From an uncultured virus (IMG/VR IMGVR_UViG_3300024283_000012) (taxonomy: Duplodnaviria; Heunggongvirae; Uroviricota; Caudoviricetes): DNA of 64,000 nt. Position numbers and translations under genes: made by a program. How positions within the stretch are numbered: the stretch's first letter is position 1; the number at the start of each line of letters is the position of its first letter. The stretch is taken from the IMG/VR virus record IMGVR_UViG_3300024283_000012. The stretch is one strand, 5' to 3'. A model generated the notes under the pieces. It was given only the letters and a program-made list of their open reading frames with translations, did no database searches and was not told where the DNA came from. Below are positions 18,221-55,755 of this stretch, one piece after another.

Positions 18221-19783
18221 ATGGCGTTAAGTCCAGAAACCCTAACTTCGATTTTGCGCATCAAGAAGCAGCAGGATCAGGATGCGGCCGATCGCGCGGC
18301 TGAAGCGGCAAAGAACGCGCCAGTCGATAACACGCGACCTGCGGCACCGGGTCCGTTTGGTCCTTTGGCGGGTGCAACGGCCGGATTAATCAATGGACAA
18401 CCTGAAGGCGGGATTAGCGATTGGCAGACAGGTCAACCGCAACTGGACAATTCAAACCTTGCTGGTCCGGTGCCGACAAATTTGACGCCCCCGCAGTCGT
18501 TTCAGCCTCCGCCATTACCGAATACCAGACCGCGACTCGTTACAGGTACGCCTGTTGAGCAAGGTGGTGCGTCGCCCATCGGATACAACGGCGGTCAATT
18601 GCTCAACTCTGGCGACTTCAATTATCTAAATCCGCGCGTACCTAACCCGAAGCAGACATATGAAGGCACGCCGATGCCATCGCGGCCGGACTATCAAAAC
18701 AGCGTCGACGCGACAGGCCAGCATATCGGTAAAGCCGCTCGGTTCGGCGCGGGTTTCCGCGAGGGGCTACGTGGCGGTCCACTATTCGCGCTCGGCAATG
18801 CGGTGACTTCCCTGCTCGCTCCCGGTCACGGCAACGAAGAAAAGTATCAGGTTGACAGTGAGCGGTTCAATAGAGAGAAGGCGATAGATCAGCAACGCGA
18901 CAGGAACGATCCGTACTATCAGAATCAATTGCAGACGCAGCAGTTGAGGATGGAGCAGCCGGTTAAATTGCAGACTTTCCAGCAGCAGCAGCAGGCAGAG
19001 CAAGCACGCCAGATGACACTGGAAGCACAGAGACAGCAGGGGCGAATCGAGAAAGCAAATCTCGTCGGCACTCAGGCGCTGGCAAAAGTCAGAATGACCA
19101 ATGAGGGTAAATCTGCACTCGCCGATAAGAACAATCTCGCAAAGGCAACGCTGGAAACCCGCCAGATTGCCGCAGGTCTGACGGGACAACCGGACTATGA
19201 CAATCTTTCGGACGAAGACAAAGCACAGATGGTTTCCGATATATATGTCAAACGGCAACAGCAAAAAGTCGCTGAATCCGCATCGAAAACAAATAAAAAT
19301 ATTGCGCAGACCAGTCAGGCAGTTGCGGCCACGGAAGCCACAAAGAAGCTCGGCGACTTGCGCGACAAGCAAGGCCAGTTAATAGACGACAAGATCAGCA
19401 ATCCAGAGCACTATTACAGGGGAATGACCGGGGATGCTCTCTACCGTGCGCAGATGGGTGATTACACCGACGCACTAAAGAGACTGGATACCGAAGAATC
19501 GCAGGCTCGCCAGGATCGCCGTGCCGGCGTTATCGACGATGATGCTCTGAAGGCAAAGCTCGGCGATATAGCTACTCGTCGCACGGCGGCGGTTCAGGCA
19601 CGCAAAGATGCCAGCCAGCAAGTCATCGGACAGGATCAGGCACGCAGGACTGGTGCGAGAACTGGCCCCACGCTGTCGACCGGGCACAAAACTGGCGACA
19701 CCGTTACGGTCGGCGGCAAACAGGTTCGAATAACCAAAGTTCACCCAGACGGTAAAACATTTGACTACGAAGAAATCAAATAA
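18221..19783 (+). CDS. Putative ejection/internal virion protein
   Basis: Pro-rich N-terminus, Gln-rich coiled coils, directly upstream of the giant gene. Confidence 0.6.
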   Translation: MALSPETLTSILRIKKQQDQDAADRAAEAAKNAPVDNTRPAAPGPFGPLAGATAGLINGQPEGGISDWQTGQPQLDNSNLAGPVPTNLTPPQSFQPPPLPNTRPRLVTGTPVEQGGASPIGYNGGQLLNSGDFNYLNPRVPNPKQTYEGTPMPSRPDYQNSVDATGQHIGKAARFGAGFREGLRGGPLFALGNAVTSLLAPGHGNEEKYQVDSERFNREKAIDQQRDRNDPYYQNQLQTQQLRMEQPVKLQTFQQQQQAEQARQMTLEAQRQQGRIEKANLVGTQALAKVRMTNEGKSALADKNNLAKATLETRQIAAGLTGQPDYDNLSDEDKAQMVSDIYVKRQQQKVAESASKTNKNIAQTSQAVAATEATKKLGDLRDKQGQLIDDKISNPEHYYRGMTGDALYRAQMGDYTDALKRLDTEESQARQDRRAGVIDDDALKAKLGDIATRRTAAVQARKDASQQVIGQDQARRTGARTGPTLSTGHKTGDTVTVGGKQVRITKVHPDGKTFDYEEIK

Positions 19784-22700
19784 TGCTGACAGGCACGGCC
19801 GATATTTCAGAGATTGATCAGGACCAGTCGGCTACCCCTCCGCCTAAAACACAGACAGCAACAGTTGACGATATTGACACTGCATCAGTGAAAGACCCGA
19901 AAGAACTGGTGCGGCGATATGCTCCTGATTACGGTATCGACCCTGATCTAGCGGAAAAGCTCGCCGACAGAGAATCGATTCACTTTCGCCCTGATGTTGT
20001 TTCTGGCAAGACACCATCGCCGCGTGGCGCAATTGGTACGATGCAGTTGATGCCAGACACCGCCAAAAGCCTGGGCGTCAATCCTTACGATTTACACGAC
20101 AACATCAGGGGCGGCCTTCAGTATCTCCGTAAGCAGATGGATGATTTCGGCGATCAACGATTGGCGCTTGCTGCCTATAATGCCGGGCCACAGGCCGTCC
20201 GCGACCATAAAGGAATCCCGCCATACAAAGAAACTCGCGATTACGTCGATGCTATCGCTGGTCCAGTACAAAAAGGTACAGCGACCGTCGATCAGATTGA
20301 CAGTCAGGCCCCGTCATCGGGTACGGCAACAGTCGATCAGATAGATACGCCTGCCCCGACCGTCAACGCAGGCGCTCCGAATCGTCCACTGTCAGCAGAT
20401 GAGCTGAAGGCGGCAGAGCCGTGGCGACAACAGCAGCCACTGACCGATTTTACAAACCTGCCAACATCGCCTGACGATAAGTTTCTCAAGGCCACAGCGC
20501 CCGTCACGGCGACGAATCGCGCCGAACAGTATGCAATGACCGCTGCAAACGCCAATCGACTAAAGGATGCGAATCAGGCAATGCCGGGTGTGCCGCTGGC
20601 AACGTTCAATCCGGTTGACGTGTCATTCGAAAACAACAAGCCCGGTGATCTGCGCAATGCTCTGTACAGTAAACTCGGCGTCGCTGATATTGCAAAAGAG
20701 TTGAAAGAGAAACACGGTGTTGACCTGCTTTCGTTCCCGGTGAAAGACCCTGTTACTGGCGAAACCAGACCCGCCACAGACGAAGAAATGGCGCGTTACG
20801 CCCAGCAGTCGCAAAGTGCATCCGTCGGCGGTCGCAATGTATTCGGGGCAACCGTGCCAATCAGTCCGGCAACTCTGATCGCCGCGAACGCATACAAGAC
20901 CGGCGGGATTGAGGGCTACAAAAAGGCTGTCGATTTATTGCAACAGCAATACGCCGATGCTCAAAAGCAAACGCAGAACATTACCCCTGAAGATCGCGCG
21001 CGCAGAGAGGCCGCGAATGTGCCCGGTCAGATTGCCGCCGGTGTCAACGAAGCCGCCGCAAAGAATGTTCAGTTCCTGAGAAACGCTGCGCATCTCGACC
21101 CGGCACTTGCCGGGATAATGGATCTGGGCGCTGACCCTGTACAGTTCCAGAAGAAACTCGAAGAGCAAGGATCAACCTCGGCAATGCGACAATTGCCAGC
21201 GCCGGAAACATTTGCACAGGGACTGGCCCGTCAGACTCCGGGAATGGCCGCCGATTTCTCGCGAATGGCAGCAGAGTCGTCTGGCCTTGGCCCGCTGGCT
21301 GCGCTTACAATTCCCGGTGATGTTGCAATCCAGAATCTTAATAAGCCAATCCACGAACAGTTGAAAGCGCAGTGGCAAAACCTGCCGATGACTGCGGCAT
21401 CACTTATTCCCGGTGGGCCGATGGCAAAGTCGCTCGCGCTTGGTCCGACAGCGGCAGCACAGACGCTGTACGAGGGTGGGTCTAATCAGCAGGCATTGTC
21501 ACAGGCTGCGTTAATGTCGCTCTTGCCTGTCCTGCACGGCAGCGAATCATCCGAAGAGGGCAACCGCATTATCGACGGGTTCGGCGACGCGAGACTGCAA
21601 AAGGCGCTGCTCGATTATGTCCAGAATCCGACGGCAGAAACGTCTGACCTGATTGATCAACATTTAGGTCAAATGGGCCTTGACCCGCGACAATCGCAGG
21701 AGTTTTTGAATAACCTGCGCATACGAATGAATCCGCAGAAAGCGGGGTCGGATGTTATAATCCGTCATCCGTTAGACCAGATACAGAGATCGGCGCCGGC
21801 TGGGGCTCGGGAAAACCTGCCTAACACGCAGGAGTCTACCACGGCGCCTGAGAGAATTAACTACCGGGCGCCTGGGCATCCGACAGGGGAAGCGAAGCCT
21901 GGCGCTGAACTGATGAGGGCCGACGTGAAGCAGCCGTGGGAGATGAGTCGCGACGAATTTTACAACAGCGGAAATGTCGGCTATCACGGTGGCGCAGATA
22001 TCGGACATGAAGGAATCTTAAAGCGCGGCTATCAAGGTGGGTCGAGAACCGGCCAGGATATGGGTGCTCTCTTCTTCACCGAAAGTCCGGATTACGCCGA
22101 AGGGTATAAAAAGCAGGGTGGCGCGGTTTACGAGCGTCTACATAATGACGAGAATATTTTTGATGCGAATAACCCTGAGCACCTTGCGCGGCTAAAAGAC
22201 GGCTTCCTGAAAGACTGGGAAGATGAATACGGCAGCAAAGAAGATGCGCTTCAGGATTACCAAAATGCTGTTAAATCGATCAAAGCTACAATGCAGCACG
22301 GCGCGGCTGACTGGGCAACGGCCAGCGGATACACCGATCAAATAGAAAAGGCTGGTTTTGACGGTGCCCGTTTTCTTGAGCGACCGGGGGAAATCAGCAA
22401 AACCGAACAAGGCTTTGAGGTATCAGGCAAGCCTGTTTATAGCGTTGGCATTTTTAAAGACACGCCCGTCTCGCGTAATCTGCACCACGATATAGTTGCC
22501 GATGCTCTCCGCGAAGGCAAACCCGTCCCGCCTGAAGTACTGGCAGATTACCCTGATCTGAAAAGAGAGCAATCAAATGCCCGAAATTTATCAGAAAATC
22601 AAACAGGAATATCTCAGCAAGGACAAGTCGGAGAAAACCGCGAAGTCAATCGCGGCGGCGACAACGGAAACTTACGGGTCGGCGAAGGACAAGGCGATGC

Positions 22701-25700
22701 TGGAACACGACGCCCAGGCAGCGCGGAAGAAGCCCAAAAGCTCATAGACGACTACGAAAATCATCTTGAGAGCCGAGGGATTGATCCGCTCAGCCTTTGG
22801 GACGCTGAATCAGTGCGTCAGCTTGGCGGAGAGCAAAATCTACCTGCTGGGCAGAGCGTTCAACCACTTGAACTCCAGCGGCTGTATCAGCAGCGTGACG
22901 CGCTGGGAGCGACCGAGTTACAGCGCAGTATTGATGGAATTTCAACGGAACTACGAAGAGCGGGCGTGCAAGAACATGATCTTCCCGATGTTTTGAAATC
23001 CATCGCCCTAGACCCGAACAGGACCGATGCGCTCGGTCAAAACAGCGCCTACGAGCATACGCAGAAACTGGCGCTTGGTGATCCGAAACATTTAGCCGAA
23101 GAGATTTATATCAAACTCGCGGCTAAGCGTGGGTTGGACGTAGAATTCAGCAGGACCACGGACGACATTATCCACCCTGATAAACAAACACTGGCCGATG
23201 CGCGAAATGCGGTCGTGGGCATACGAAAGTATTTTGAAGGTGGCGGCAAGTTCCTGCTTGCCGCGCCTGAGAGGAAACCCGAGCCTGGCACGCTCAGCGC
23301 CAGGAGCCCAGCACCCGAGAAACCCTATAGTTTCACCCACGAGCGTTTCGCCGGTGTACGTGAAGCCCCCGACCAGAGCGGCGTCCCCGATGGTAAGCTG
23401 CGAGTGCTCGATTCATTCAACGATGAGCATATTGTTCGCGATCCACGCGCCAGTAGAAGCGAAAGCGACACGAAGTTCGCCAGCAACAAAACGATTCTTG
23501 GCGCAATACGCGATCACGGCGGCATTAAGCCCAGCGATAATTTTAGTGGCGAGTTGCGGCAATTCACTAACAAGCAAAGCGGCACCACGGGAGTTGTCGG
23601 TAAATCTGGGCACTGGGACGCCGGGCAGATGGCATCGGTTTTGAATCAGGATGGATTTCGAGACTCAAACGGCGAAGAATTAACAGCCGACACGATGCTT
23701 GAGTTGATGGACCGCGAGCAGCGCGGCAATCCCGTCTACTCAAACGACCGAAGTCAGGCTATAATAGACAGACAACTGGACAAGGATTATGAGCAACACG
23801 TTCAAAGTGACGAAGCTGGTCCCGCTTTCAAGCAAGACTCCGCATATATCGACCGCGAGCTTGCCGACCCAGACTCCGAAATCGGCCGCGCCTTTGACGC
23901 CTTACTCGACACCGACAATCCAGAAGCCGCAGCCGACAGTTTCCGCAAGCGATCCCAGTACACCCTCTCGCCCGAAACAATCGATGAGGTCATTCAACGA
24001 GCTAACGCCGCAAGAGAAGACGGTATTCCGTTTGAAGACTTTCAGGAGAGCGGCGGCGAAAGCGGAAAATCAGCGCCAGAGCAATTCCGGGACGACATCA
24101 ACCGAGCCGAAGCCGCTGGTAAATTAGAAACCGAGAGGAACGCCGCAAAAGCCAAAGCCGCCAACGAAGCCGAACTATTGCGCGTCGGAATGAAGGGCGG
24201 CCGGGCGAATATCGAAGAAACGCAGCGACCTGCACCAAAAGACACGTTGACGCCTGACCTGTTTAATCCACAGGAAGATTTATTCAATAAAGGCAGTGAG
24301 ACCGGCGCTATTCGCCCCGAATTACTAAACGCTGTCGGCGTCGGATTACCGAAGCTGGTAGAAAAAGACGTGCTGCCGATCGGCGCAAAAGGTGTCGCCG
24401 CTTTCCGTTCCCTGTTCGATGATATCCGCAAGGTGTTCGCACCCGCTGGCCGCAGTCCCGAAGCCGGCAAAACCGCTGGTATTATTCGCGCGAACGCCGG
24501 TGAAATGGCACGTAAAGGCGACATAGCCGAAGCTGCGTTAAAAGGCGCTGGCAAAGAGTTGATGAAGCTACCAGAACAACAGCGATGGGATTTCGTCAAC
24601 CGCGTCGAGAATGGACTGAAGCAGCCGAACCCTGAGATGCAGGCAACCGCTGACGTGATGCGAAAACTGCTGGATGATCGCCGCGCAGAGGTCCAGGCGC
24701 TCGGGACTGGAAAGCTGCAGACTTACATCGAAGATTATTTTCCGCACATCTGGGAAGATCCCGCAAAGGCCAAAAGTCTCTTCGCCGAATTCTTCAGCAA
24801 GCGACCAATGGAAGGCTCAAAGGCATTCCTAAAGCAGCGAACTATCCCGACAATTGCCGATGGTATCGCGATGGGTCTGAAACCCGTTACGGACAATCCT
24901 GTCGATATGCTGCTGCTGAAAGCCCGCGAAATCGACCGATACGTAATGGCACAAAAGAGCCTGGCGGAGATGAAGCAGTCAAAGATTGCTCAGTATGTTC
25001 GCGCTGGCGATAAGCCACCGGACGGTTTCGTTGCGCTCGATGATCGCGTGGCGAAGGTCTATGGTGGCCCCGACTCAAAGCCACAGGGAGGCACGCTGAT
25101 TCGTGGTCAATACTATGCGCCTGAAGCTGCTGCGCGAGTGTTTAATAATTACCTCTCCCCAGGGCTTCGCGGTAAGCCGTGGTTTGATGCCTATCTCGCT
25201 GGCGGCAACATTCTCAATCAGGCACAGCTTGGATTATCGGCGTACCATCTGGGCTTTACTTCCGTTGATGCGATGGTGTCAAAGACCGCACTGGCGCTTC
25301 AGCAACTGGCATCCGGTAAATTCGTTGAAGGCGGAAAATCGTTACTGCGAACACCGATTGCGCCAGTCGAGAATCTCATTCGCGGCAGCAAGCTGCTAAA
25401 GGAATGGCAAGCACCAGGAACACAGAGCACCGAAGTCCAGCAACTGGCCGACGCCGCGATGAATGCTGGTGGTCGCGCAAAGATGCACAGTTTCTACGAT
25501 GCTCGCGTGACACAAAATATGGTCAACGCCTTTAAGGAAGGCAACGTAATCGGCGGTGTTTTGCGTGCTCCATTTGCCGCTGTCGAGCAGGCCGCGAAAC
25601 CGATTATGCAGTACATTGTCCCGCGTCAGAAGATGGGGATATTTGCCGATCTCGCAAAGCACGAAATGGAAAAGTTACCACCGGGCGCCTCCCGTGAAGA

Positions 25701-26790
25701 GTACAGGGCGGCAATGGCCCGTGCGTGGGATTCTGTCGACAACCGAATGGGTCAAATGGTCTATGACAATCTATTCTGGGATAAGACCGCCAAAGATTTG
25801 CTGATGGGTAGCGTCCGTTCTGTCGGATGGAACCTCGGAACATTCAGAGAGCTCGGCGGCGGTATCGCTGATTTCGGCAAGCAGGCCGTCGGAATCGCCC
25901 GTGGCAAGCGTCCTGAAGTCACACCACGAATGGCATACACCGTCGCGCTTCCGCTCGTTGTTGGGGCGCTGGGCGCGATTACGCAGTATCTATACACCGG
26001 CAAAGGACCGAAAGAACTGAAGGATTACTACTTCCCGCAGACCGGCAACCTGGACGAGAACGGCAGACCTGAGCGAGTCAACCTGCCATCGTACATGAAA
26101 GACGTTTACGCTTACAGCCAGCATCCGCTGCGGACGATGGAGCACAAGGCAAACCCGATCATTTCGTTAACGGCAGAGATGCTGGAAAACTCTGATTACT
26201 ACGGCACAAAGATTCGCAACGAAGACGATCCAAAGTTGAAGCAGTTGATGGATATAGTTAAGCACGTCGGGACTGCCGCTGTGCCGTTTGGTATTCGCGG
26301 AATGCAAAAAGAATACGAACGGTCGGGAAAGATCAATCCCCTGCCGCAGATAGGCATTACGCCCGCGCCAAGCGATGTTAACCAGACAGCAGCAGAGGCA
26401 AAACTGCACGAGATCATGCAGGAGAAGATGCCAGCCGGGACGCGAACACAGGCCGAAGCGGATAAAGCAAGGATGAAATCACAGTTGCGCCGCGATGTTC
26501 GAATGGGCAAAGACGTATCCGGTCAAATCAGCACGGCGGTAAAACAGGGACTGCTGACGCCTGACGAAGTTCGCAATATCCAAAAGGCCAAAACACAGAC
26601 AGCGCTACAATCGGAGTTTAAGAGCCTGTCGATACGCGATGCCCTGCGCGTGTGGGATCTGATGACACCCGACGAAAAGAGCAAGACCAAACAGGAATTG
26701 CAGATGAAGCAACGGTTGATTATGAAGGAGCCGGTATCAGAACGGCCAGCACTTCAGCAGCGGCTCAAGGCAGCGCTGGGCGCGAAGTAG
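19783..26790 (+). CDS. Giant polyvalent ejection protein: N-terminal lytic transglycosylase (SLT), putative ART-like domain, LPD38-like C-terminus
   Basis: 2335 aa; ADRES, GAIGTMQLMPDTA, ALAAYNAGP, PPYKETRDYV (SLT); GYHGG...GALFFTESPDYAEGY. Confidence 0.8.
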   Translation: MLTGTADISEIDQDQSATPPPKTQTATVDDIDTASVKDPKELVRRYAPDYGIDPDLAEKLADRESIHFRPDVVSGKTPSPRGAIGTMQLMPDTAKSLGVNPYDLHDNIRGGLQYLRKQMDDFGDQRLALAAYNAGPQAVRDHKGIPPYKETRDYVDAIAGPVQKGTATVDQIDSQAPSSGTATVDQIDTPAPTVNAGAPNRPLSADELKAAEPWRQQQPLTDFTNLPTSPDDKFLKATAPVTATNRAEQYAMTAANANRLKDANQAMPGVPLATFNPVDVSFENNKPGDLRNALYSKLGVADIAKELKEKHGVDLLSFPVKDPVTGETRPATDEEMARYAQQSQSASVGGRNVFGATVPISPATLIAANAYKTGGIEGYKKAVDLLQQQYADAQKQTQNITPEDRARREAANVPGQIAAGVNEAAAKNVQFLRNAAHLDPALAGIMDLGADPVQFQKKLEEQGSTSAMRQLPAPETFAQGLARQTPGMAADFSRMAAESSGLGPLAALTIPGDVAIQNLNKPIHEQLKAQWQNLPMTAASLIPGGPMAKSLALGPTAAAQTLYEGGSNQQALSQAALMSLLPVLHGSESSEEGNRIIDGFGDARLQKALLDYVQNPTAETSDLIDQHLGQMGLDPRQSQEFLNNLRIRMNPQKAGSDVIIRHPLDQIQRSAPAGARENLPNTQESTTAPERINYRAPGHPTGEAKPGAELMRADVKQPWEMSRDEFYNSGNVGYHGGADIGHEGILKRGYQGGSRTGQDMGALFFTESPDYAEGYKKQGGAVYERLHNDENIFDANNPEHLARLKDGFLKDWEDEYGSKEDALQDYQNAVKSIKATMQHGAADWATASGYTDQIEKAGFDGARFLERPGEISKTEQGFEVSGKPVYSVGIFKDTPVSRNLHHDIVADALREGKPVPPEVLADYPDLKREQSNARNLSENQTGISQQGQVGENREVNRGGDNGNLRVGEGQGDAGTRRPGSAEEAQKLIDDYENHLESRGIDPLSLWDAESVRQLGGEQNLPAGQSVQPLELQRLYQQRDALGATELQRSIDGISTELRRAGVQEHDLPDVLKSIALDPNRTDALGQNSAYEHTQKLALGDPKHLAEEIYIKLAAKRGLDVEFSRTTDDIIHPDKQTLADARNAVVGIRKYFEGGGKFLLAAPERKPEPGTLSARSPAPEKPYSFTHERFAGVREAPDQSGVPDGKLRVLDSFNDEHIVRDPRASRSESDTKFASNKTILGAIRDHGGIKPSDNFSGELRQFTNKQSGTTGVVGKSGHWDAGQMASVLNQDGFRDSNGEELTADTMLELMDREQRGNPVYSNDRSQAIIDRQLDKDYEQHVQSDEAGPAFKQDSAYIDRELADPDSEIGRAFDALLDTDNPEAAADSFRKRSQYTLSPETIDEVIQRANAAREDGIPFEDFQESGGESGKSAPEQFRDDINRAEAAGKLETERNAAKAKAANEAELLRVGMKGGRANIEETQRPAPKDTLTPDLFNPQEDLFNKGSETGAIRPELLNAVGVGLPKLVEKDVLPIGAKGVAAFRSLFDDIRKVFAPAGRSPEAGKTAGIIRANAGEMARKGDIAEAALKGAGKELMKLPEQQRWDFVNRVENGLKQPNPEMQATADVMRKLLDDRRAEVQALGTGKLQTYIEDYFPHIWEDPAKAKSLFAEFFSKRPMEGSKAFLKQRTIPTIADGIAMGLKPVTDNPVDMLLLKAREIDRYVMAQKSLAEMKQSKIAQYVRAGDKPPDGFVALDDRVAKVYGGPDSKPQGGTLIRGQYYAPEAAARVFNNYLSPGLRGKPWFDAYLAGGNILNQAQLGLSAYHLGFTSVDAMVSKTALALQQLASGKFVEGGKSLLRTPIAPVENLIRGSKLLKEWQAPGTQSTEVQQLADAAMNAGGRAKMHSFYDARVTQNMVNAFKEGNVIGGVLRAPFAAVEQAAKPIMQYIVPRQKMGIFADLAKHEMEKLPPGASREEYRAAMARAWDSVDNRMGQMVYDNLFWDKTAKDLLMGSVRSVGWNLGTFRELGGGIADFGKQAVGIARGKRPEVTPRMAYTVALPLVVGALGAITQYLYTGKGPKELKDYYFPQTGNLDENGRPERVNLPSYMKDVYAYSQHPLRTMEHKANPIISLTAEMLENSDYYGTKIRNEDDPKLKQLMDIVKHVGTAAVPFGIRGMQKEYERSGKINPLPQIGITPAPSDVNQTAAEAKLHEIMQEKMPAGTRTQAEADKARMKSQLRRDVRMGKDVSGQISTAVKQGLLTPDEVRNIQKAKTQTALQSEFKSLSIRDALRVWDLMTPDEKSKTKQELQMKQRLIMKEPVSERPALQQRLKAALGAK
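22577..22747 (+). CDS. Putative nested 56-aa basic protein in the +1 frame of the giant gene
   Basis: aaaagagag upstream; MPEIYQKIKQEYLSKDKSEKTAKSIAAATT...KKPKSS. Confidence 0.45.
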   Translation: MPEIYQKIKQEYLSKDKSEKTAKSIAAATTETYGSAKDKAMLEHDAQAARKKPKSS

Positions 26791-27264: not shown

Positions 27265-28347
27265 TCACCCTTGCTGCCATTCTGGGATTGTCCAATTCCC
27301 TGTCGCGATACAATTCATCGTAGTTCGTTTCGTCTTATATGCGATCTCGCCCAGCACCGTGTCGGGGTACTCGCTCATGTCTTCCGCGTGCCTCAATATC
27401 GAATTCACCGCGTAGGCCAAACTGGACATTTTATGCTCTGGCGATTTGGTGACCGAATAACACAGGCCCAGCGTTATGTGAAACAGGTTCACGCGTGCAA
27501 TCTGCTCATACGCCTTCAGGTCACGTTCCTCTTTCCACGTCCCGCCATTGCTCAGTTGCTCAAACAGCTTGCGGACCTTTGCGAGCTTGTCGTCGGAAGG
27601 AACCGACGAAGATTGTGGCACTGGAAGATTATTCTTAGTATTAAATACATGTGGGCTAATTTCTAGTGGACTGGCCGACTGGATTTCATGATAACCATCC
27701 CCGTCGCTGATTGGTGGACTAGCTGACCCAGTGATTGGTCCACTGACCCGCCTGGACTTGATGCGCTTCGAAGTCGGATCGATTTCGATTCCCGCCACCT
27801 TCCGCGCTGCAAAGATTTCCTTTGGTCCGTAAACGTGATAGACGCCGCCATAAACATCGCCTTCCCTGAATCTGAAATCTATCGACAGTTTGCTTTCCAG
27901 TCCATGCACGGCCGTGCGGACAGTTTGTTTGCTCCGGATTCCCGTCTCGCGTAAAAGATCGCGCATCCTGAAATAAATATCATTGCGGCCAAAGCTGATC
28001 GTCTCGCGGTACAGAATCGAGTAAACAGCCTTCTCAGAATTGGTATGGGTTGAATCGAGCGTGACCCGGTGGGCTAGTGGACTAGCTTGCCCGGTGATCG
28101 GCGCACTGATTAACCCGGTGACTGGTGAGCTAGCTGACTCAGTGATTGGTGGACCTGCTGACCGACTGACTGGTTGACCAATTGGTGCACTGGCTGACTC
28201 GCTTGCTGGTGCGCTGGATGTGTCAGTGGGTGGCGCACCTATTGGTGGACTAACGACTGGACTAGGCTGGTTAAGCTCTTCATTGTCAATACCGGCAAGG
28301 ATAGAACCAAGGCCCATTTTCGGTTTCGCTGCCAATGGTTTGCTCAT
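27265..28347 (-). CDS. Winged-helix DNA-binding protein, putative plasmid-type replication/partition protein
   Basis: SEKAVYSILYRET...MRDLLRETGIRSKQTVRTAVHGLESK; internal DNA repeats; overlaps ATPase stop. Confidence 0.55.
   Translation of the reverse strand: MSKPLAAKPKMGLGSILAGIDNEELNQPSPVVSPPIGAPPTDTSSAPASESASAPIGQPVSRSAGPPITESASSPVTGLISAPITGQASPLAHRVTLDSTHTNSEKAVYSILYRETISFGRNDIYFRMRDLLRETGIRSKQTVRTAVHGLESKLSIDFRFREGDVYGGVYHVYGPKEIFAARKVAGIEIDPTSKRIKSRRVSGPITGSASPPISDGDGYHEIQSASPLEISPHVFNTKNNLPVPQSSSVPSDDKLAKVRKLFEQLSNGGTWKEERDLKAYEQIARVNLFHITLGLCYSVTKSPEHKMSSLAYAVNSILRHAEDMSEYPDTVLGEIAYKTKRTTMNCIATGNWTIPEWQQG
27664..28255. repeat. Degenerate 12/24-bp direct repeats in two clusters inside the wHTH gene
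   Basis: tggtggactagctgacccagtgat (27712), tggtgagctagctgactcagtgat (28123), further copies at 27664, 27736, 28075, 28099, 28147, 28183, 28207, 28243. Confidence 0.75.
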
Positions 28348-29141
28348 TGCAGCCTAGCCTCTTTCTCTGCGGACTCCACGATTTCCGGTGTAATCTCTTT
28401 CAGCTTGCGCAGTCGCATATACTCATACGCCATATCGCAAATCTTCAGAATCTCGCGGGGAACGCCGCCGCTAATGTCGTAGATGGATTGCAGCGCCTCT
28501 TCGGTGAAGGGAACTGGGATTTGTGCCAAGTCGCAGCGATGGCTAATCATCGATTGAGTTTCGCCCCAGGTGAGCGGATCCAGAATCGATGGTGCGAATA
28601 TTCGCGACCGGATAGCTTTCTGATCATCGGCAAGTAACCGGTCTCGAAGTTCGATTTGACCGGCTAAAACTATCTGAATCAGTTTGCTTTTGCTGGTTTC
28701 GAAGTTCAACAGGGAACGGACCTGCTCAAGCATCTTCGTAGTCAACCGCTGGGCTTCATCGATGAACACGGCGACATTGCGGTTTTCCTGATAGGCTGAC
28801 AGCAGATATTGCTCCAATGCCTTTTCCTGGTCGTACAGTGACCGCTTGGGGCTTATTTCGAGCTCGGCACAGATCGCCTTCAGGAACGCAAAATCACTGC
28901 TGAAATTGGCGGTCGGGATAAACACAGCCTGATAGTTTTCGCGGGCTGAATAATCGCTAAAGACAAGGCGCAGGACGCTTGATTTACCCATCCCTACGTC
29001 GCCCAGGATGCACGTTAGACCGCGTTTCCGGTCGATGGTGTACCTAATCTTATGAAGAGCGCCTTTTAGCGTCTCTGTGAGAAACAGGCTGACAGGGTTC
29101 GGCGAAGTAGAGAACGGCTCAATCGCTGGTTTTGCTGACAT
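28344..29141 (-). CDS. ExeA/GspA-family AAA+ ATPase
   Basis: PFSTSPNP, Walker A GDVGMGKS, Walker B VFIDEAQ, QIVLAGQIEL, SGGVPREI. Confidence 0.85.
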   Translation of the reverse strand: MSAKPAIEPFSTSPNPVSLFLTETLKGALHKIRYTIDRKRGLTCILGDVGMGKSSVLRLVFSDYSARENYQAVFIPTANFSSDFAFLKAICAELEISPKRSLYDQEKALEQYLLSAYQENRNVAVFIDEAQRLTTKMLEQVRSLLNFETSKSKLIQIVLAGQIELRDRLLADDQKAIRSRIFAPSILDPLTWGETQSMISHRCDLAQIPVPFTEEALQSIYDISGGVPREILKICDMAYEYMRLRKLKEITPEIVESAEKEARLQ

Positions 29142-29336
29142 ATTAAGGCAGATTCCTTTGATGCAATGGGAAATGATCGCCAATTCTGGCGAGTGACACG
29201 GGAATTCTGCCTAATTCGGTGTACGGGTGGGATAATAAGACATGTTTCGTGCGGTGCCAACAGGGAATTGCGCCTCCGCCCGCGCTGGTCGACTCGCGAG
29301 GCGTGGAACTGCGCTATGGCAATTCGGATAATACGA

Positions 29337-31786: not shown

Positions 31787-31978
31787 ATGAAAACTGAGTA
31801 TCTAGTTCAGGAAGCCGCAAAAGCAGCGGGTATCCACGTAGAGCGGGTGCGCCAGCTGCTAAAGGATATGCGCGAGGACTGGCATTATCGCGTAGTTGGT
31901 AAAACCAAAATTATCAATTCGCGCGGGATGAAGGTTATACTTGAAAGACCGAATCAAAGGAAGCGGAAAACCAAATGA
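31787..31978 (+). CDS. Small HTH DNA-binding protein (excisionase-like), near-leaderless
   Basis: VQEAAKAAGIHVERVRQLL. Confidence 0.65.
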   Translation: MKTEYLVQEAAKAAGIHVERVRQLLKDMREDWHYRVVGKTKIINSRGMKVILERPNQRKRKTK

Positions 31979-32178
31979 AAGTAACCGAAACCATCAATAT
32001 CGAAATCGACGCCAAGGAAGCCCTCGCGGTGCTGCTGGATTACATTCAGGCCAAGGGCTACAAGGTCATACAGGGACACTTCGATTACGGATGCGACAAT
32101 AATACTGAGGATTATCCTACACACAAACTGACCGTTCAGGTGGTCGTCGAAAAGAAGTCACGGAAGCCGCGCCGCTAA
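31975..32178 (+). CDS. Hypothetical protein
   Basis: ATGA overlap with previous gene. Confidence 0.55.
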   Translation: MKVTETINIEIDAKEALAVLLDYIQAKGYKVIQGHFDYGCDNNTEDYPTHKLTVQVVVEKKSRKPRR

Positions 32179-32189
32179 CAGGAGGTGAT

Positions 32190-32558
32190 ATGCAACTGAG
32201 CGAGGAGCAATGGCTACAGGAATTGAAGGCAGGCGACGAAGTCGTGGTGCGCCGTGGATACGTTTACGGCGATTACAGACTCGGTACGGTAGAGCGAACC
32301 ACTCCGACGCTTGTTATCGTGAGCGGCCTGAATTATCGAAGGCGTGACGGATACACGCAGGGCAGCGGTTATCAGCGGTGTCAATTGATACAGCCGACAC
32401 AGGAACTGCGAGACAAGATCGAAACGACGGAGTTGCTCAACAAGTTTTCCGGGACAGGCGTGTTCGATAAACTACCGCTCGATTCGTTGCGACAGATCGA
32501 CGTAATACTAAAGGCAGCGCTCGCGCAATCGCCCGACGCTAACGACGGCGCGCGGTGA
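32190..32558 (+). CDS. Hypothetical SH3/KOW-like barrel protein
   Basis: LKAGDEVVV...GTVERTTPT; AGGAGGT RBS. Confidence 0.65.
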   Translation: MQLSEEQWLQELKAGDEVVVRRGYVYGDYRLGTVERTTPTLVIVSGLNYRRRDGYTQGSGYQRCQLIQPTQELRDKIETTELLNKFSGTGVFDKLPLDSLRQIDVILKAALAQSPDANDGAR

Positions 32559-32571
32559 TGATGGAGTAAAT

Positions 32572-32796
32572 ATGACGCAACGGATATTCGACGAATACAT
32601 TAAAGAGCGCGTTTACATTGAGCGTATCGACGTAATCGGCCCGATGGATGAAGGCGAGACTGTTCTAAAAGCTCTCTGGGCTGAAGGCTACCGAACCATA
32701 AGGTCGGGTCCGTATACGAATCGCGACATGCATCCGAACGTCGATATGACGCGGTTTCTGTTTATAGCGGAACGCGAAATTGAGTCGCCGAAGTAG
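32572..32796 (+). CDS. Hypothetical protein
   Basis: GGAG RBS; 74 aa. Confidence 0.55.
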   Translation: MTQRIFDEYIKERVYIERIDVIGPMDEGETVLKALWAEGYRTIRSGPYTNRDMHPNVDMTRFLFIAEREIESPK

Positions 32797-32841
32797 AGTA
32801 GCCCGGCCGCTGCGTGGCGCGGGAAGAAAGGGAAGGTGAAT

Positions 32842-33093
32842 ATGGAAGAACGTAAACAGCGTGAACTGGTCGATGTAATCGCAGAAATGCTGGCCATTGT
32901 TCCAGCATCTGAATTGAATCTGCATAACGACCTTGGGAAAATTCGCACGAGCGCCAGCTATGCTGCACCTGAAATGCAGCGTCATTGGTGGGCGCGAACC
33001 GCTGATATATTGCAAGCAAGATTTGGCGAGGAATCGTTCACCGATGAATGGCAGGACAAACTATTCAATATCTGGATGGACAAGGCTGCATAG
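32842..33093 (+). CDS. Hypothetical protein
   Basis: GGAAGG RBS; ORF. Confidence 0.55.
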   Translation: MEERKQRELVDVIAEMLAIVPASELNLHNDLGKIRTSASYAAPEMQRHWWARTADILQARFGEESFTDEWQDKLFNIWMDKAA

Positions 33094-33135
33094 CACCGCC
33101 GCCACGCTCGCTCGGTGGGCAGCAGGCGCGCGGTG

Positions 33136-33366
33136 ATGAGTAGGGAAGTGGGGATTATGACATTCGCAGAGTGGATCAATACCAGCGGCTCTGAGCACAG
33201 CGACATAGAATCGTTCAAGCAGCGGATGGAGATAGGTGACGCTGGCAACCCCGATAATAAATGGATCGCGGCAAGCTACGCCTACAATGCAGGCATTCAG
33301 GAAGGGCTGCGACTGGCCGCTGAACGAATGAGAACGGTTATCATCGACGGAAGGCCAAGGGAATAG
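33136..33366 (+). CDS. Hypothetical protein
   Basis: ORF in the rightward early operon; start uncertain. Confidence 0.5.
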   Translation: MSREVGIMTFAEWINTSGSEHSDIESFKQRMEIGDAGNPDNKWIAASYAYNAGIQEGLRLAAERMRTVIIDGRPRE

Positions 33367-33428
33367 CCCGCCACCTGAAGCGCACCGTGTCGGCCACACG
33401 CGGTATGTTGTTCGAATGGAAGGTGATT

Positions 33429-34220
33429 ATGGATATTGAAACGCAGCTAATATTTGACGATTTCCAGGGTGGACGGTTCTATCGCGGTCGCTATGTATAC
33501 CTGTTGTCGGTTCGCCTTCCCGTGATTGATTACGGTTTCTGGACCACCGACATAGGCGGCAAGGTATACAAGGAACTAAGGGCGTTCGCCGAAATGTGCT
33601 ATGCGCCGAAGTCGTTTCAGGATCGGGGAACTGGCCGCAACAAGAGAAGCGCGACAGTGTTTTCATTCCATAACGATACGCCGACATTCAAGCTGTTCGG
33701 CCTGAGCCAGCAACAATATTTCAATAGAATGCTCAAACAGAAAAGCATCGTCGCGGTAGATCGCGGCCGGTCTGGCTGGTGGTACACGCAGCACGACCTG
33801 CTGCCGCTGGTTCGCTATCGTAAAAAGTCACATCACGTAGTCGGTCGAGTCGCTAAAGACAAGCGGGATCTGTTCGCTCCCGTACTCGTTGAACCTGTCG
33901 ATAAAATGCGAGAGGACGCAAAGCCCGGTGATTTCGAATATTACGCAGTCAGAAGCTGGCCGCTGCCTGACTATTCAAAGCTCGACTTGGGCCCGGATCG
34001 ATTACCCGAAGTCTGGGTTTGTAATCTCTGCGAGCATACCGACGTTTATGCGAAATGGCCGCGCCAGGACGGACTGCTTGGCGAATACATTCATCACTGC
34101 CCGAAGTGTCAGGCCAGGGGCGCTGATACGTTTCACAGAATCGTCGACCTTGCGAAAGACTCCATTGCATTCAAGCCGCGCCGACGGATGCAGGATGATT
34201 TCTATTTTACGCTGCAATAA
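33429..34220 (+). CDS. Hypothetical basic protein with C-terminal Zn ribbon
   Basis: WVCNLC...HCPKC; GGAAGGTG RBS. Confidence 0.65.
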   Translation: MDIETQLIFDDFQGGRFYRGRYVYLLSVRLPVIDYGFWTTDIGGKVYKELRAFAEMCYAPKSFQDRGTGRNKRSATVFSFHNDTPTFKLFGLSQQQYFNRMLKQKSIVAVDRGRSGWWYTQHDLLPLVRYRKKSHHVVGRVAKDKRDLFAPVLVEPVDKMREDAKPGDFEYYAVRSWPLPDYSKLDLGPDRLPEVWVCNLCEHTDVYAKWPRQDGLLGEYIHHCPKCQARGADTFHRIVDLAKDSIAFKPRRRMQDDFYFTLQ

Positions 34221-34317
34221 ATCAAAACACGCCACACCCTAGCTGCAACCTGCCGACAATTTGCGCGCAATTCGCTGCAAAATGATCGCGCCGGGTAGGG
34301 GGACTGTGGTATAGTGG

Positions 34318-34725
34318 TCAGCGACTCATACGATTTCCTCCGACCTGCTGGGCAGCTTACGCTTGGCGGGTCGACGTTATTTGAATTATTTGAATTATGG
34401 GATGCGCGTCGTGGACATTGACACGAGATAGAGGACGTGGCGCAGTCCTCCCCTTCAGGATGCAAGCCATAAAAGGCTACGGGTATACACGGATCGGGCC
34501 AGCCGAGTGCATCCGACCGCTGGAAGCCAGCATGTGAAATTCATTGCCGTATCCCGCTGTCTTTGAATCAGGGGCGAATGCCTCGCTGGACCTACTATCA
34601 TCAAGACGGTTCGGCAAATACTTGTCGTCTCTGTAAGGTTCCTGGGTTGTCCGTGACCTTCAATGTAGCGTGCTGAGGACGTTGATTTCTAACGAATGAG
34701 TCTGAGGCTTGACGGCAACCCGGAG
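34318..34725 (+). ncRNA. Putative ~410-nt structured non-coding RNA
   Basis: No credible ORF; gactcat 34323/atgagtc 34696 closing helix; many hairpins with G-U pairs on +; extended -10 TGgTATAGT at 34307-34315. Confidence 0.6.
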
Positions 34726-34730
34726 TCGAA

Positions 34731-34953
34731 TCACTCAACCTTCTTCCGTATCTCGCCTACGACCCGAAGCAATTCCGCAATCGACACATACAGCACGACA
34801 ACACAAACTCCCGCGATCAGCGCAACCGAGCCCAGGCCGATCCAGAGGTAGTTCTGATGCGAGAATATGAGCAGGACGGCGCCGAGGGTGATTAGGGCGA
34901 GCCCAGAGGTGCAGCCGATGAGGGCGACGGCGATATGGGTTAGACGGGATGAC
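34731..34953 (-). CDS. Small two-TM membrane protein
   Basis: MSSRLTHIAVALIG...; two hydrophobic helices. Confidence 0.55.
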
Positions 34954-35200
34954 ATTTTATTTACCGTTGACACGAATGTGAATCGAGCGTACCTTGTCAA
35001 AGCCTTAGATACGTTCGAATCTATACCCAACAATGTTGAACACAATTTAAGGCCCGTTTTTAGGCTTATTTTTCATCCTGGCCCACCTCAACGGCATACA
35101 TAGAAAATCACTACAAAAGTGATATAGTCCGCTCAGGAATCATGGAATCTCAGTGGACAGCCGCCCACTGTAAAATAATCTCACCAGTAAGGCAGTACAT

Positions 35201-35425
35201 ATGAGTTGTTTCGTCCATGTCGAATTAGAGGGATTTATCAGTGACAAGCATTTTTTCGTCGTCTATGAAGGAAAAACCTATGCGGTCACAGATCCAGCGC
35301 TGTCCCATTTTTCCATGCAGTTCCTGCCGACCGATCCGCTACGCGAGCCCGGCACCTATCTGGTTATAGCGAGCGAACGAAGGCGAAGCATGGCGTTGCC
35401 CAATCGCCTGGCGCTAGTCCGGTAG
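35201..35425 (+). CDS. Hypothetical protein
   Basis: TAAGG RBS; 74 aa. Confidence 0.45.
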   Translation: MSCFVHVELEGFISDKHFFVVYEGKTYAVTDPALSHFSMQFLPTDPLREPGTYLVIASERRRSMALPNRLALVR

Positions 35426-35785
35426 TTACGCGGGCTCGCGTTTCTGTGAATTCTTTTTCGCTGCATCGAAATCGGCGACCTCTTTCGCGCGATCATTCCC
35501 GAGTTGCTCAGCCAGTCTCTTAAACTTTTTTGCGTCATCGGGCTTTATACCGCCATAAAGGTCGATAATAATCTGCTGCATTGAAATCGCCATTATCTCG
35601 TCACCCGCTGGAAATTCGAATAACTTACCGTCGCGCCCATACGCCAGAAGTCCCCTTTCCAGAAGCGCATAGCTAACTTCGCTGACGTTCCGCCGTTCCC
35701 GGTTAGCAATCTCTTCCAGGCTTTTATTTGTCGATTCCGTGATGCGGAAAGTATGCGGAATCGTTTTCTTTTCCCGAGCGGCCAT
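35426..35785 (-). CDS. Ribbon-helix-helix (Arc/CopG-like) repressor with C-terminal extension
   Basis: PHTFRITESTNKSLEEIANRERRNVSEVSYALLERGL; GAGG RBS. Confidence 0.7.
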   Translation of the reverse strand: MAAREKKTIPHTFRITESTNKSLEEIANRERRNVSEVSYALLERGLLAYGRDGKLFEFPAGDEIMAISMQQIIIDLYGGIKPDDAKKFKRLAEQLGNDRAKEVADFDAAKKNSQKREPA

Positions 35786-35867
35786 TATTTTTTCCTCTGC
35801 AACTCTTGTACTGACAATTAGATACAAAGTACCCCTCAAGAAACAACGTTTACATCGTAGAAAAGAG

Positions 35868-35896
35868 TTGACATTGTATACATTGTGGACTATTGT
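35868..35896 (+). promoter_or_regulatory. Rightward early promoter with overlapping short repeats
   Basis: TTGACA-17-TATTGT; repeated ACATTGT/TATTGT. Confidence 0.65.
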
Positions 35897-35905
35897 GGTC
35901 ACGCG

Positions 35906-36088
35906 ATGGAAGACAACAACAAATTACACGGTCGCGCATTCGCCTTCAGGCTTTCGGAAGACCTGTTTTCCTTCTACGAGGAAAAGGCCAAACGAGAAAG
36001 ACGGAAGGTCGCTGAGGTTATTCGATTTGCGCTGGAAGATCAGAGAAAAGCTGAGTCCGGTAAGGCAAAGCGATCGAGGGTGGCGTAA
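35906..36088 (+). CDS. Ribbon-helix-helix (Arc-like) Cro-analogue
   Basis: AFAFRLSEDLFSFYEEKAKRERRKVAEVIRFALED. Confidence 0.7.
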   Translation: MEDNNKLHGRAFAFRLSEDLFSFYEEKAKRERRKVAEVIRFALEDQRKAESGKAKRSRVA

Positions 36089-40076: not shown

Positions 40077-41249
40077 ATGGCAACGCAACAATCAATACAG
40101 CTACGCAATCAATCGACGCAATCGTTAATCGCCAGCGGCGCAAAGGCATCTCTTCCGCGTTTCGGCGTGCTCCACAAGGGTGAAAAAGCTCAGCGAAGCT
40201 CAACCGGTGACATTACGCGACCGGGCAAGGATCTGAGTTATTTCCGCCTGGATACCAAATTTCCCGACATAGAGGCGGTCTGGAATAAGGCTTATCCCGA
40301 CGACGCGGCCAAGAGACGGATTAACGTGATTATGCCGTTTGCCACAGTAGACGAGAACTTTGAACGATGCCGCGAACAGTGGGTAAAAGGCGGACTGGTC
40401 CATAGGTGCGACGGCGTGACGACATCGCGAATGAGAGATAAACAAACCGGAAAAATGTCTCTTGAGCCGCAGGATTGCCCCGGTGGATGCGAACTGGTTT
40501 CTCGAATGATGGTGATGATTCCTGAGATGATCGTCGGCACTCTTCGTCTCGGACTGTTTACGCTCAACGACACAAGCAAAAACGACATTGCCCGATTAAA
40601 GGAAGAACTACAGTGGATCTACGATGCGCGCGGTTCGCTGCAAGGCGTCCCGATGATTCTGTACCGCACGGAAGAAATGATCAGCCAGCCCAAAAGCGAC
40701 ACAGACGTTTCCCGTGTTCGTCGAGCTAAATGGATGGTCCACATTGAGGCCGGTCCTGAATTCGCAAAGAGCCTGATTCGCGGTATGACACAGGAAGCGA
40801 TTGCCGCGCCGACCAGGGCTGCGATTGCCGGAACCCAAAGAAGATTGTCGGCCGCACCCGCGCCGATTGCTAACGGCTCGCCGATCGACACCAGCGGTAT
40901 CACCCACGAAGCTTATGGAGATGACGAACCGGAGCCGCCAGCATCGGATTTTGGCGAACAGCCGGGCGATGAAAACGATGGCGCAATCGATGCTGAGCCA
41001 GAATTGCCACCAGCGGAATTCATCAGCGGGGAACTGCTGGAGCGCGCAACCGACCTGACTAAGAAACTCACAGCGGAAGGCGTCACAGTGACCGAGCTTG
41101 CGTCGGTGATTGAGAATGTCGCCGGGGTGAAGAAGATCGAACACGTCGCCGCTGGTGACGCAAAACCGCTGATAGCCGCACTGGCGCAGGCGCTCAGCAC
41201 GAAGCTGGCAAGCAAGACCAAGAAGAAAAGTCCGTTCGCGCCGGAGTAA
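40077..41249 (+). CDS. Phage recombination-associated protein (gp3/RDF-like family)
   Basis: LPRFGVLHKG, LSYFR, HRCDG motifs; acidic linker; AGGAG RBS. Confidence 0.6.
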   Translation: MATQQSIQLRNQSTQSLIASGAKASLPRFGVLHKGEKAQRSSTGDITRPGKDLSYFRLDTKFPDIEAVWNKAYPDDAAKRRINVIMPFATVDENFERCREQWVKGGLVHRCDGVTTSRMRDKQTGKMSLEPQDCPGGCELVSRMMVMIPEMIVGTLRLGLFTLNDTSKNDIARLKEELQWIYDARGSLQGVPMILYRTEEMISQPKSDTDVSRVRRAKWMVHIEAGPEFAKSLIRGMTQEAIAAPTRAAIAGTQRRLSAAPAPIANGSPIDTSGITHEAYGDDEPEPPASDFGEQPGDENDGAIDAEPELPPAEFISGELLERATDLTKKLTAEGVTVTELASVIENVAGVKKIEHVAAGDAKPLIAALAQALSTKLASKTKKKSPFAPE

Positions 41250-52534: not shown

Positions 52535-52981
52535 GTGCCTGAAAGACAATGGGAAACCCCGGAATGGTTCAAAGATCAGGAACGCCGACATCTTTGGACC
52601 TACCAGAATATAACTGAACTTGGGGCTACGATGAGCGCTCTTGTAAAGGTTGTCGAAACAATGCGAGAGGACGTAGATGACTGTAAAGAAAAAGACAGCG
52701 ACACGTCCACGAAGTTAGATATCGTTATCCAGCTCCTGAAACCCTTTACCGATGCGCACGATCAGCAGATACAGCGCCAGATACTAACTGCTGTCACGCC
52801 CCAGGGCACAACTATTCAGCAAACCACAACGACAACCGTCACACAAAACCCGATTGAGTGGGCGGTAAAGAATCCTTTAAAAGCGGTGATTACCGCAGGC
52901 TTTTCGATTCCAGCTATTATCTACGTCTGGAAGGCCCTTGTCTGGTTCGTGCAGCTCCTGGCGACGTATGGCAAACCGTGA
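52535..52981 (+). CDS. Coiled-coil protein with C-terminal TM
   Basis: GTG start; C-terminal hydrophobic helix. Confidence 0.55.
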   Translation: MPERQWETPEWFKDQERRHLWTYQNITELGATMSALVKVVETMREDVDDCKEKDSDTSTKLDIVIQLLKPFTDAHDQQIQRQILTAVTPQGTTIQQTTTTTVTQNPIEWAVKNPLKAVITAGFSIPAIIYVWKALVWFVQLLATYGKP

Positions 52982-53696
52982 ATCTATTCTGATTATCGAG
53001 GATATCGACGACACCCGCGAACTGTTCGAGGTCGGGCTACCAATGTACGGGTATAAGACGTACACGGCCCGCGATGGGCAGGAAGGCCTCGACCTTTACG
53101 AAAAGCACCGATGTCCGGTTGCGATCGTCGATGTAATGCTGCCTTCCGCTGTCACCGAAGATCTGAACGGCTACAAGGTATCTGCGAAAATCAAAGAGAA
53201 AAACCCTGACGCTATCGTAATAATCGTGACGGGTGCAACTGAGCCCGAGCAGCCAATCTCGAAGGTTCGGATCCTCGACAGCCACGCCGACATAATACTG
53301 ACGAAGCCGGTCACGGTCGATCAGGTGGTAACAGAGATTCAGTACATACAGGCAAAGCGGGACGCGATAAAGCCGCGTGTATTGCGTGCGCCATCGAATC
53401 GCCTGATGTGGATCGGCCTTGCCATCCTGTTCGGCGCCCTCGTGGTCGGTCTGTGCGGCATCTCCGCGGCGAGCTATCACTTCTATGCTGTCGAGACTGC
53501 GCGTCACGGTCAGGAAATGATGGACCTGCGACGCGATGAGGACAGGCGATTTCTGGATCTGCAACACGCGATGGAGCGCGAAACGGATATGAAGCTCGCA
53601 CAGATGCAGGGCCAGATTAATTACCTCGAACCGCGTGTCCTGACCCTGGAAAAAGAATTGTCACGTATGCACGGTGAGATAGGGAGGAAGAAGTAA
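52968..53696 (+). CDS. Response-regulator receiver (REC) domain fused to TM helix and coiled coil
   Basis: ILIIEDID, ARDGQEGL, AIVDVMLP, IIVTG, ADIILTKPV; TM WIGLAILFGALVVGLCGISAA. Confidence 0.8.
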   Translation: MANRESILIIEDIDDTRELFEVGLPMYGYKTYTARDGQEGLDLYEKHRCPVAIVDVMLPSAVTEDLNGYKVSAKIKEKNPDAIVIIVTGATEPEQPISKVRILDSHADIILTKPVTVDQVVTEIQYIQAKRDAIKPRVLRAPSNRLMWIGLAILFGALVVGLCGISAASYHFYAVETARHGQEMMDLRRDEDRRFLDLQHAMERETDMKLAQMQGQINYLEPRVLTLEKELSRMHGEIGRKK

Positions 53697-54462: not shown

Positions 54463-54663
54463 TCAGGTCTTCGCGATCGGCCCCGGTTTCTTCTCATACG
54501 CTGCCAGTTTCTCCACGTCCGCATCTGACAGGATATGCACATTGCCGACGGTGGCGACTGGCTCAATGCCAAGCGCGCGCATCTGGCGGTAGAGTGTGTT
54601 GTATTTGCGATCTAAACGCTTAGACAGCGCTGAGAGTGTATTCTGTGGATTTATGTCGGGCAT
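54463..54663 (-). CDS. Small HTH protein
   Basis: TLSALSKRLDRKYNTLYRQM; AAGGA RBS. Confidence 0.6.
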   Translation of the reverse strand: MPDINPQNTLSALSKRLDRKYNTLYRQMRALGIEPVATVGNVHILSDADVEKLAAYEKKPGPIAKT

Positions 54664-55665: not shown

Positions 55666-55755
55666 TGATCAAATCTCCTTTTGCGGGTGATGCGGTCAAT
55701 TCGGCCCCGGGTGTTACAAGCGCTCGGGGCTTACTGTTTCCTGCTGACAAGAGAG

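Follow-up and report, generated by a model that had tools for sequence, protein, structure and literature searches.

The DNA analysed here, referred to as the window, is a stretch of 64,000 nt from an uncultured soil phage and represents its genome or a large part of one. Among its products are the large terminase (60078-61976), the major head protein (7-1233) and a virion protein of 2335 aa that carries a lytic transglycosylase domain (19783-26790), together with tail proteins, an HNH endonuclease and several DNA methyltransferases. The largest non-coding stretch of the window is a gap of 510 nt (34221-34730) that lies between convergent genes, with a rightward operon (31787-34220) on its left, ending in the gene 33429-34220, and a leftward gene (34731-34955) on its right. 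Several other genes were recognised in the wider context, including a response-regulator receiver domain protein (52938-53696, plus strand; Pfam PF00072, E 1.1e-15), an AAA ATPase of the MuB/TniB kind (28344-29183, minus strand; phrog_296 'DNA transposition protein', PF13401) and a Gp3-like 'recombination directionality factor-like' protein (40077-41249, plus strand; PF18897). The scanned ORFs included no recognisable integrase or transposase. Furthermore, a divergent pair of small-protein genes, 35426-35902 (minus strand) and 35885-36088 (plus strand), is located about 1 kb from the features described below. The first of these products gave a weak ribbon-helix-helix or repressor match (Pfam RHH_1, E 0.0066; phrog_876, E 0.0058), the second resembles it by eye, and promoter-like sites are found between the two genes; the pair may constitute an immunity-type switch.

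The last gene of the rightward operon (33429-34220, plus strand) encodes a 263-aa basic protein (pI 9.23) with a C-terminal CxxC...CxxC zinc ribbon. The original prediction had described it as an orphan, a description that no longer holds, as an exhaustive HMMER search returned 29 cluster representatives at E <= 1e-3, 19 at E <= 1e-10 and 11 at E <= 1e-30; a word-indexed search found one relative only, at 48% identity. In a family alignment built from the window protein and the 20 best representatives, leaving out nine weaker rows, the four cysteines C198, C201, C224 and C227 were found to be invariant in 21/21 members. The ten family members that were looked up all came from metagenome assemblies, on contigs of 1-25 kb. 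Searches of Pfam, PHROGs, NCBIfam and PDB sequences yielded no match to the protein, a Pfam PHD match being dismissed as chance level (E 0.074), and tblastn against phages yielded none either. Two copies only were present in metagenome_contigs, with the protein 100% identical, and no relatives of the flanking proteins were found in viral_contigs or genome_contigs. Herein, two viral_contigs records initially listed as relatives were rejected as false positives, since the similarity amounted to a short shared peptide word inside ORFs of about 1,530-1,540 aa. The family is a small and uncharacterised one, from phages or metagenomes.

With the 21-sequence alignment, AlphaFold2 produced a model of the zinc-ribbon protein with a pLDDT of 89.4 and a pTM of 0.82, whereas an input of two sequences gave a pLDDT of 29.6 and was of no use. 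Foldseek comparison of the model with PDB and BFVD gave 0 matches at E <= 0.001, a VIA wide structural search reached a best Z of 4.4 with 0 chains at Z >= 5, and the top score in an ESM Atlas search (0.75) was under the usable level. The predicted model thus matches no known RNA-binding fold or other fold, and the fold of the protein may be new. In the same operon, a 122-aa protein (32190-32558, plus strand) was matched by the Pfam 'Phage ProQ C-terminal-like domain' at 26.5 bits against a threshold of 27 (E 1.1e-5) and by phrog_9662, and a link of this protein to RNA-chaperone-type proteins is possible.

On the opposite side of the gap, the minus-strand ORF 34731-34955 encodes a 74-aa hydrophobic protein in which two hydrophobic stretches are visible by eye. 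One relative was found, at 84% identity, and no family match was obtained besides a chance-level NCBIfam match. No Shine-Dalgarno sequence precedes its predicted ATG, and the best minus-strand promoter-like site (34982-34954) overlaps the ATG.

The gap itself offers little material for comparison. The same DNA was found in two metagenome contigs, one 100% identical and the other with 1 mismatch in 4414 nt, and also in soil metagenome runs; of the 24 runs listed, 0 were RNA. In contigs from four DNA runs the gap pieces were identical except for one low-depth contig (depth 2.4), which is without 2 bases at 34582. Every copy of the gap that was found is therefore identical or nearly so, leaving no sequence variation from which covariation could be read. 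Blastn of the gap against phages and plasmids, both in distant mode, and of the 10-kb region against phages in near mode gave 0 matches; an exact 32-mer of the gap gave 0 matches in viral_contigs, and blastn for paralogous gap DNA within the window gave chance-level matches only. No tRNA or tmRNA was found. In addition, no frame holds a positive codon score throughout the gap, the maximum being +0.15 in one minus-strand frame near 34530; all six frames are closed, and none of the 22 stop-to-stop pieces of at least 25 aa is convincing. A 9-nt tandem repeat, TTATTTGAA, is present in 2.4 copies at 34377-34398, as had been pointed out from the sequence earlier; apart from it, the repeats of the gap are short low-copy matches only. 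The portion 34401-34730 carries no structure, coding, repeat or homology signal and is read here as spacer or as the untranslated tail of the convergent genes.

In the original prediction, 34318-34725 was taken for a multi-hairpin RNA of about 410 nt with a possible 3' pseudoknot, possibly forming a ribonucleoprotein with the zinc-ribbon protein. The elements named for this model do exist. The closing helix GACTCAT (34323) / ATGAGTC (34696) is present, and all the internal stems are found within 1 nt of where they were placed, namely CGACCTGCT (34341) / GGCGGGTCG (34365), TCGTG (34409) / CACGA (34422), GAGGAC (34431) / GTCCTC (34445), AGCC / GGCT, CGGAT (34490) / ATCCG (34511), GCTGG / CCAGC and AGACGG (34604) / TCGTCT (34625), as is the crossing pair CTGGGTTG (34642) / CAACCCGG (34716) on which the pseudoknot was based. 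Their number, however, is what shuffled sequence produces. Local hairpins of at least 5 bp in 34318-34725 amount to 44, against 50.8 +/- 6.6 in 300 dinucleotide shuffles, 86% of which reach at least the observed count, and helices of at least 8 bp amount to 23, against 24.9 +/- 4.4 in 60 shuffles. Because both counts match the shuffles, the closing and crossing helices have to be regarded as ordinary; many short stems in 400 nt are what random sequence of such composition yields.

Folding energies lead to the same result. The plus strand of 34318-34725 has a minimum free energy (MFE) of -139.3 kcal/mol, against -134.6 +/- 5.8 for shuffles (z -0.81; 23/100 as good), while the minus strand has a z of +0.31 and the part 34400-34730 a z of -0.14, with 42/100 shuffles as good. 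In 100-nt sliding windows, z fell below -2 only around 34250-34450 on the plus strand; in those that start from 34400 onwards it stayed above -2 on both strands. With the covariance models of Rfam release 15, where a match was defined by a score at or above the gathering threshold of the family, 0 matches were obtained in the whole window, and at E <= 10 the region 34000-35300 returned two chance-level matches only, CRISPR-DR53 (16.5 bits vs 45) and sR52 (13.4 vs 50). A scan for a terminator-like feature near 34725 found none, so that the proposed RNA is left with no 3' end signal, and a terminator-like hairpin occurs just 20 nt inside it. Although the long RNA is favoured by a gap GC content that equals the genome average (0.535) and shows no AT bias, by the basic character of the upstream protein and by the existence of the listed stems, this model is very improbable, and the pseudoknotted RNA and the ribonucleoprotein, as stated earlier, should not be carried forward. 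In this respect, the chief value of the analysis is negative.

One part of the region departs from this pattern. At 34304-34316 on the plus strand lies the extended -10 promoter-like motif CTGTGGTATAGTG (TGn + TATAGT). Its core, TGGTATAGT, is indeed present at 34307-34315, in agreement with the original prediction, with the TG one base before the hexamer and a 5/6 match to a TATAAT-like hexamer. The motif is without a -35 hexamer, and a two-hexamer promoter scan did not flag it. The shorter form TGNTATAGT occurs in three copies in the window, all on the plus strand, vs 0.67 expected, a number reached by 2/100 shuffles. The 13-mer CTGTGNTATAGTG occurs exactly twice, CTGTGGTATAGTG and the copy at 55648 differing at the free position only, and each copy is followed by one of the window's two hairpins of highest stability among the uninterrupted ones. 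The third TGNTATAGT (35120-35128, plus strand) is promoter-like and lies before the gene 35201-35425, with no significant hairpin after it (fold z +0.46 and -0.22). The looser pattern TG.TATA.T has 12 matches in all, several of them intragenic. A further motif, TATTTGAWTTATT, was rejected, its other matches being scattered and mismatched. As CTGTGNTATAGTG is found twice only, each time before a top hairpin, a promoter-driven RNA is plausible, and the motif is probably meaningful. What is left of the earlier proposal is a plausible promoter-driven RNA, which would be a short transcript with a single significant structure, the terminator-like hairpin.

The hairpin in question (34341-34373, plus strand) begins 25 nt past CTGTGGTATAGTG and consists of 13 bp, including 8 G-C and 4 G.U pairs, closed by a 7-nt loop. 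At -20.5 kcal/mol it is a stable, G+C-rich stem-loop of the kind expected of an intrinsic terminator. It starts 121 nt past the stop codon of the zinc-ribbon gene and has the same orientation. No terminator-like site of the region ranks higher, and it is the only plus-strand terminator-like element between the stop at 34220 and the convergent gene, the next one (35050-35067) lying past 34731-34955. The stretch 34322-34400 has a z of -3.5, with 0/200 shuffles as good, and forms the sole exception to chance-level folding in 34318-34725. The hairpin is followed by ACGTTATTTGAATTATTTG; its T-rich tail ACGTTATTTGAATTATTTGAATTATGG (34374-34400, plus strand) contains the 9-nt tandem repeat. The tail ACGTTATTTG satisfies a scan rule of 5 T in 8, with the first T as the fourth base past the stem; the U-tract is interrupted (ACGUUAUUUG). 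On the minus strand the same hairpin amounts to -11.8 kcal/mol. This strand asymmetry was considered as independent evidence and dropped, since shuffles give equally strong hairpins and a search that permits G.U pairs gives about one-third G.U by chance (here 4/13).

Between motif and hairpin lies a predicted unpaired 5' leader of 19 nt (34322-34340, plus strand), CU-rich with the stretch UUUCCUC(C), which stays single-stranded in the MFE structure as well as in the centroid. Opposite the leader, on the minus strand (34318-34341), GGAGG-N7-ATG is followed by an ORF of three codons (ATG AGT CGC TGA), an arrangement that could be a gene-start relic, a start-stop mini-ORF or chance. A candidate trans target of the 19-nt leader was rejected: the best duplex, -22.4 kcal/mol near 28400 on the minus strand, was equalled by 11/25 shuffled leaders.

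The second cassette occupies 55648-55745 on the plus strand and comprises CTGTGATATAGTG, a leader and a 13-pair hairpin (55703-55731). It folds at -32.9 kcal/mol with a z of -2.91 and 0/200 shuffles as good, while its minus strand has a z of -0.21. No plus-strand operon ends at 55648-55731, as the upstream genes (54463-55665) run leftward; this links the 55703 hairpin with the motif and with no gene upstream. The cassette lies opposite the leftward gene 55081-55665, in antisense to its 5' UTR and ribosome-binding site, and a transcript starting at about 55666, some 7 nt past the -10 hexamer, would complement the whole 5' UTR including AAGGAG-N9-ATG. The 194-aa product of this gene matches phrog_37844 over residues 9-194, and a match that begins at residue 9 supports the start codon. 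Tblastn of the same protein gave four distant phage matches at 30-52% identity, too far for DNA comparison. As a candidate cis-antisense RNA, 55648-55745 is stronger than its counterpart at 34.3 kb.

The significance of the pairing between motif and hairpin depends on how it is measured. Terminator scans over bases 1-60000 listed 67 sites, among which 13 pairs are reached only at 34341 and 55703, the next best having 8. In a separate hairpin scan of the whole window on both strands, these two again came out on top (-22.0 and -20.5 kcal/mol), and both are located past a TGNTATAGT motif, of which the window has three. Hairpin strength alone nevertheless proves nothing, as such hairpins arise by chance at window scale: among shuffled 64-kb windows, the best hairpin was at or below -22.0 kcal/mol in 6/25 and the second best at or below -20.5 in 6/25. 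A measure independent of hairpin choice is the fold of the 80 nt past each of the three motifs, for which z values of -2.7, -0.2 and -3.4 were obtained. Among 400 random windows of 80 nt, only 1.25% had z <= -2.5, so that two or more of three motifs would do so by chance with a probability of about 5e-4. If the 34.3-kb site is left out of the count, being the one from which the hypothesis arose, 1/2 other sites is structured (p ~0.025). Ranked by raw MFE among 4000 random windows, the same three segments are at percentiles 15, 74 and 0.6. Neither cassette lies in coding DNA, and both predicted leaders (17-19 nt) are unpaired and CU-rich. Altogether, the pairing of motif and hairpin is probably real, though not proven.

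The reading preferred here, with a probability of roughly 0.5, is that 34304-34400 constitutes a promoter-hairpin cassette that would both end the rightward operon and give rise to an RNA of 60-80 nt from its own promoter, the rest of the gap being spacer. In such a cassette, the hairpin 34341-34373 with its T-rich tail most likely ends the operon 31787-34220, while the extended -10 would fire as a promoter with a start near 34322, about 7 nt past the -10. The primary transcript would share the terminator of the operon, which would place its 3' end some 60-80 nt from the start. The predicted RNA would consist of the 19 unpaired nt, whose CU-rich stretch is anti-Shine-Dalgarno-like, followed by the hairpin, and it may act by base pairing through this 5' tail, as may its sister RNA. 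For the sister, the predicted target is the ribosome-binding site of 55081-55665, of which it would be a perfect complement by geometry. The target of the 34.3-kb RNA could be a leftward transcript carrying GGAGG-N7-ATG or a ribosome-binding site in trans. The remaining 330 nt or so of the gap would be unstructured spacer.

The main rival is that the hairpin is a plain terminator of the rightward operon and TGGTATAGT fortuitous, with no stand-alone RNA at all. Position and orientation relative to the operon, 121 nt past the stop codon and as the top site of the region, are as this reading expects, and a 13-bp G+C-rich hairpin with a T-rich stretch past a last gene in the same orientation resembles an intrinsic terminator. 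It is further favoured by the want of a -35 hexamer, by similar motifs inside genes, by equally strong hairpins arising by chance at window scale, by a raw MFE at the 15th percentile only and by the featureless remainder of the gap. The locus differs from one in its interrupted U-tract and in the promoter-like motif, whose end is 25 nt from the start of the hairpin. Against a plain terminator, the 13-mer is found again together with a 13-pair hairpin at 55648-55731, where the sister copy ends no plus-strand operon, and the chance of such co-location is low (about 5e-4 unconditioned, 0.025 conditioned). A plain terminator is for these reasons unlikely, if still a reading to be taken seriously.

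A different role for the same elements would be antitermination in the style of the lambdoid Q - PR' - tR' module, in which the zinc-ribbon protein or another phage factor would give read-through from TGNTATAGT promoters into the middle (beyond 34.3 kb) and late (beyond 55.7 kb) gene blocks. In lambdoid phages, the gene for a zinc-binding protein is the last of the early rightward operon and is followed by a promoter and a nearby terminator. The gene order found here fits that layout, a -10-like TACGAT (34329-34334) is present in the predicted initial transcribed region, and the gene block with the terminase (60078-61976) comes after the second cassette. The Pfam scan of 88 ORF translations, however, contained no Q-, N- or other antiterminator family. 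Late genes lie directly downstream on the same strand only at the 55.7-kb cassette; the gene after the 34.3-kb cassette (34731-34955) is on the opposite strand, and the next plus-strand gene has a promoter-like TGNTATAGT of its own (35120). Moreover, another promoter-like site is situated between the 55.7-kb hairpin and the first plus-strand gene, and the second cassette is without TAnnnT in its first 25 nt. Antitermination is thus improbable, and its bolder form, in which both cassettes would be promoter-proximal terminators and the zinc-ribbon protein would found a new Q-like antiterminator family switching on the middle and late blocks, is more doubtful again. Slightly less probable still is antisense control of the convergent 74-aa membrane-protein gene in the manner of a type I toxin-antitoxin system, where read-through past the hairpin, or a long leftward 3' tail reaching 34322-34385, would allow pairing. 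The convergent arrangement, the small hydrophobic product with its 84% identical relative, the lack of any minus-strand terminator-like site between 34731 and the hairpin, and the position of the next plus-strand terminator-like site (35050-35067) beyond the gene are all compatible with such control. The ORF, however, ends around 350 nt away from the hairpin, and type I toxins are typically shorter than 74 aa.

As a promoter-hairpin cassette, the locus can be compared with several known systems. In PMC12197685, the phage antisense RNAs P22 sar and lambda OOP are given as 68/69 nt and 77 nt. The RNA predicted here would be alike in its 60-80 nt, its own promoter and an unpaired 5' part that precedes a terminator hairpin, and the sister cassette would resemble sar, which is antisense to the ribosome-binding site of ant, in being antisense to a ribosome-binding site. 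Unlike these RNAs, to which it has no sequence or Rfam relation, the 34.3-kb cassette faces a 3-codon ORF only, with no target gene evident. Small RNAs with their own promoter near the end of an upstream gene, such as DapZ and MicL (PMC9438474), offer a second parallel, in that the promoter is close to the upstream gene end and the putative RNA would end at the hairpin that follows the gene; compared with these examples, the motif here lies 87 nt past the stop codon and not within the ORF. With the lambdoid Q - PR' - tR' module (PMC4914094), the locus has in common a regulator-like gene, a promoter and a promoter-proximal terminator. A -10-like hexamer is present in the predicted initial transcribed region. 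A Q family signature is missing, and the gene that follows is encoded on the opposite strand. Termination would give an RNA of about 60 nt here, against termination at +193 in lambda according to the template description in PMC4914094.

If the short RNA is real, it would provide one more small regulatory RNA together with a duplicated promoter-terminator design, an addition to a soil phage lineage without cultured relatives that would be useful rather than surprising. More out of the ordinary is the family of the upstream protein, which combines a confident model with no known fold, and as 33429-34220 directly precedes a putative promoter-terminator pair, a regulatory role can be put to the test.
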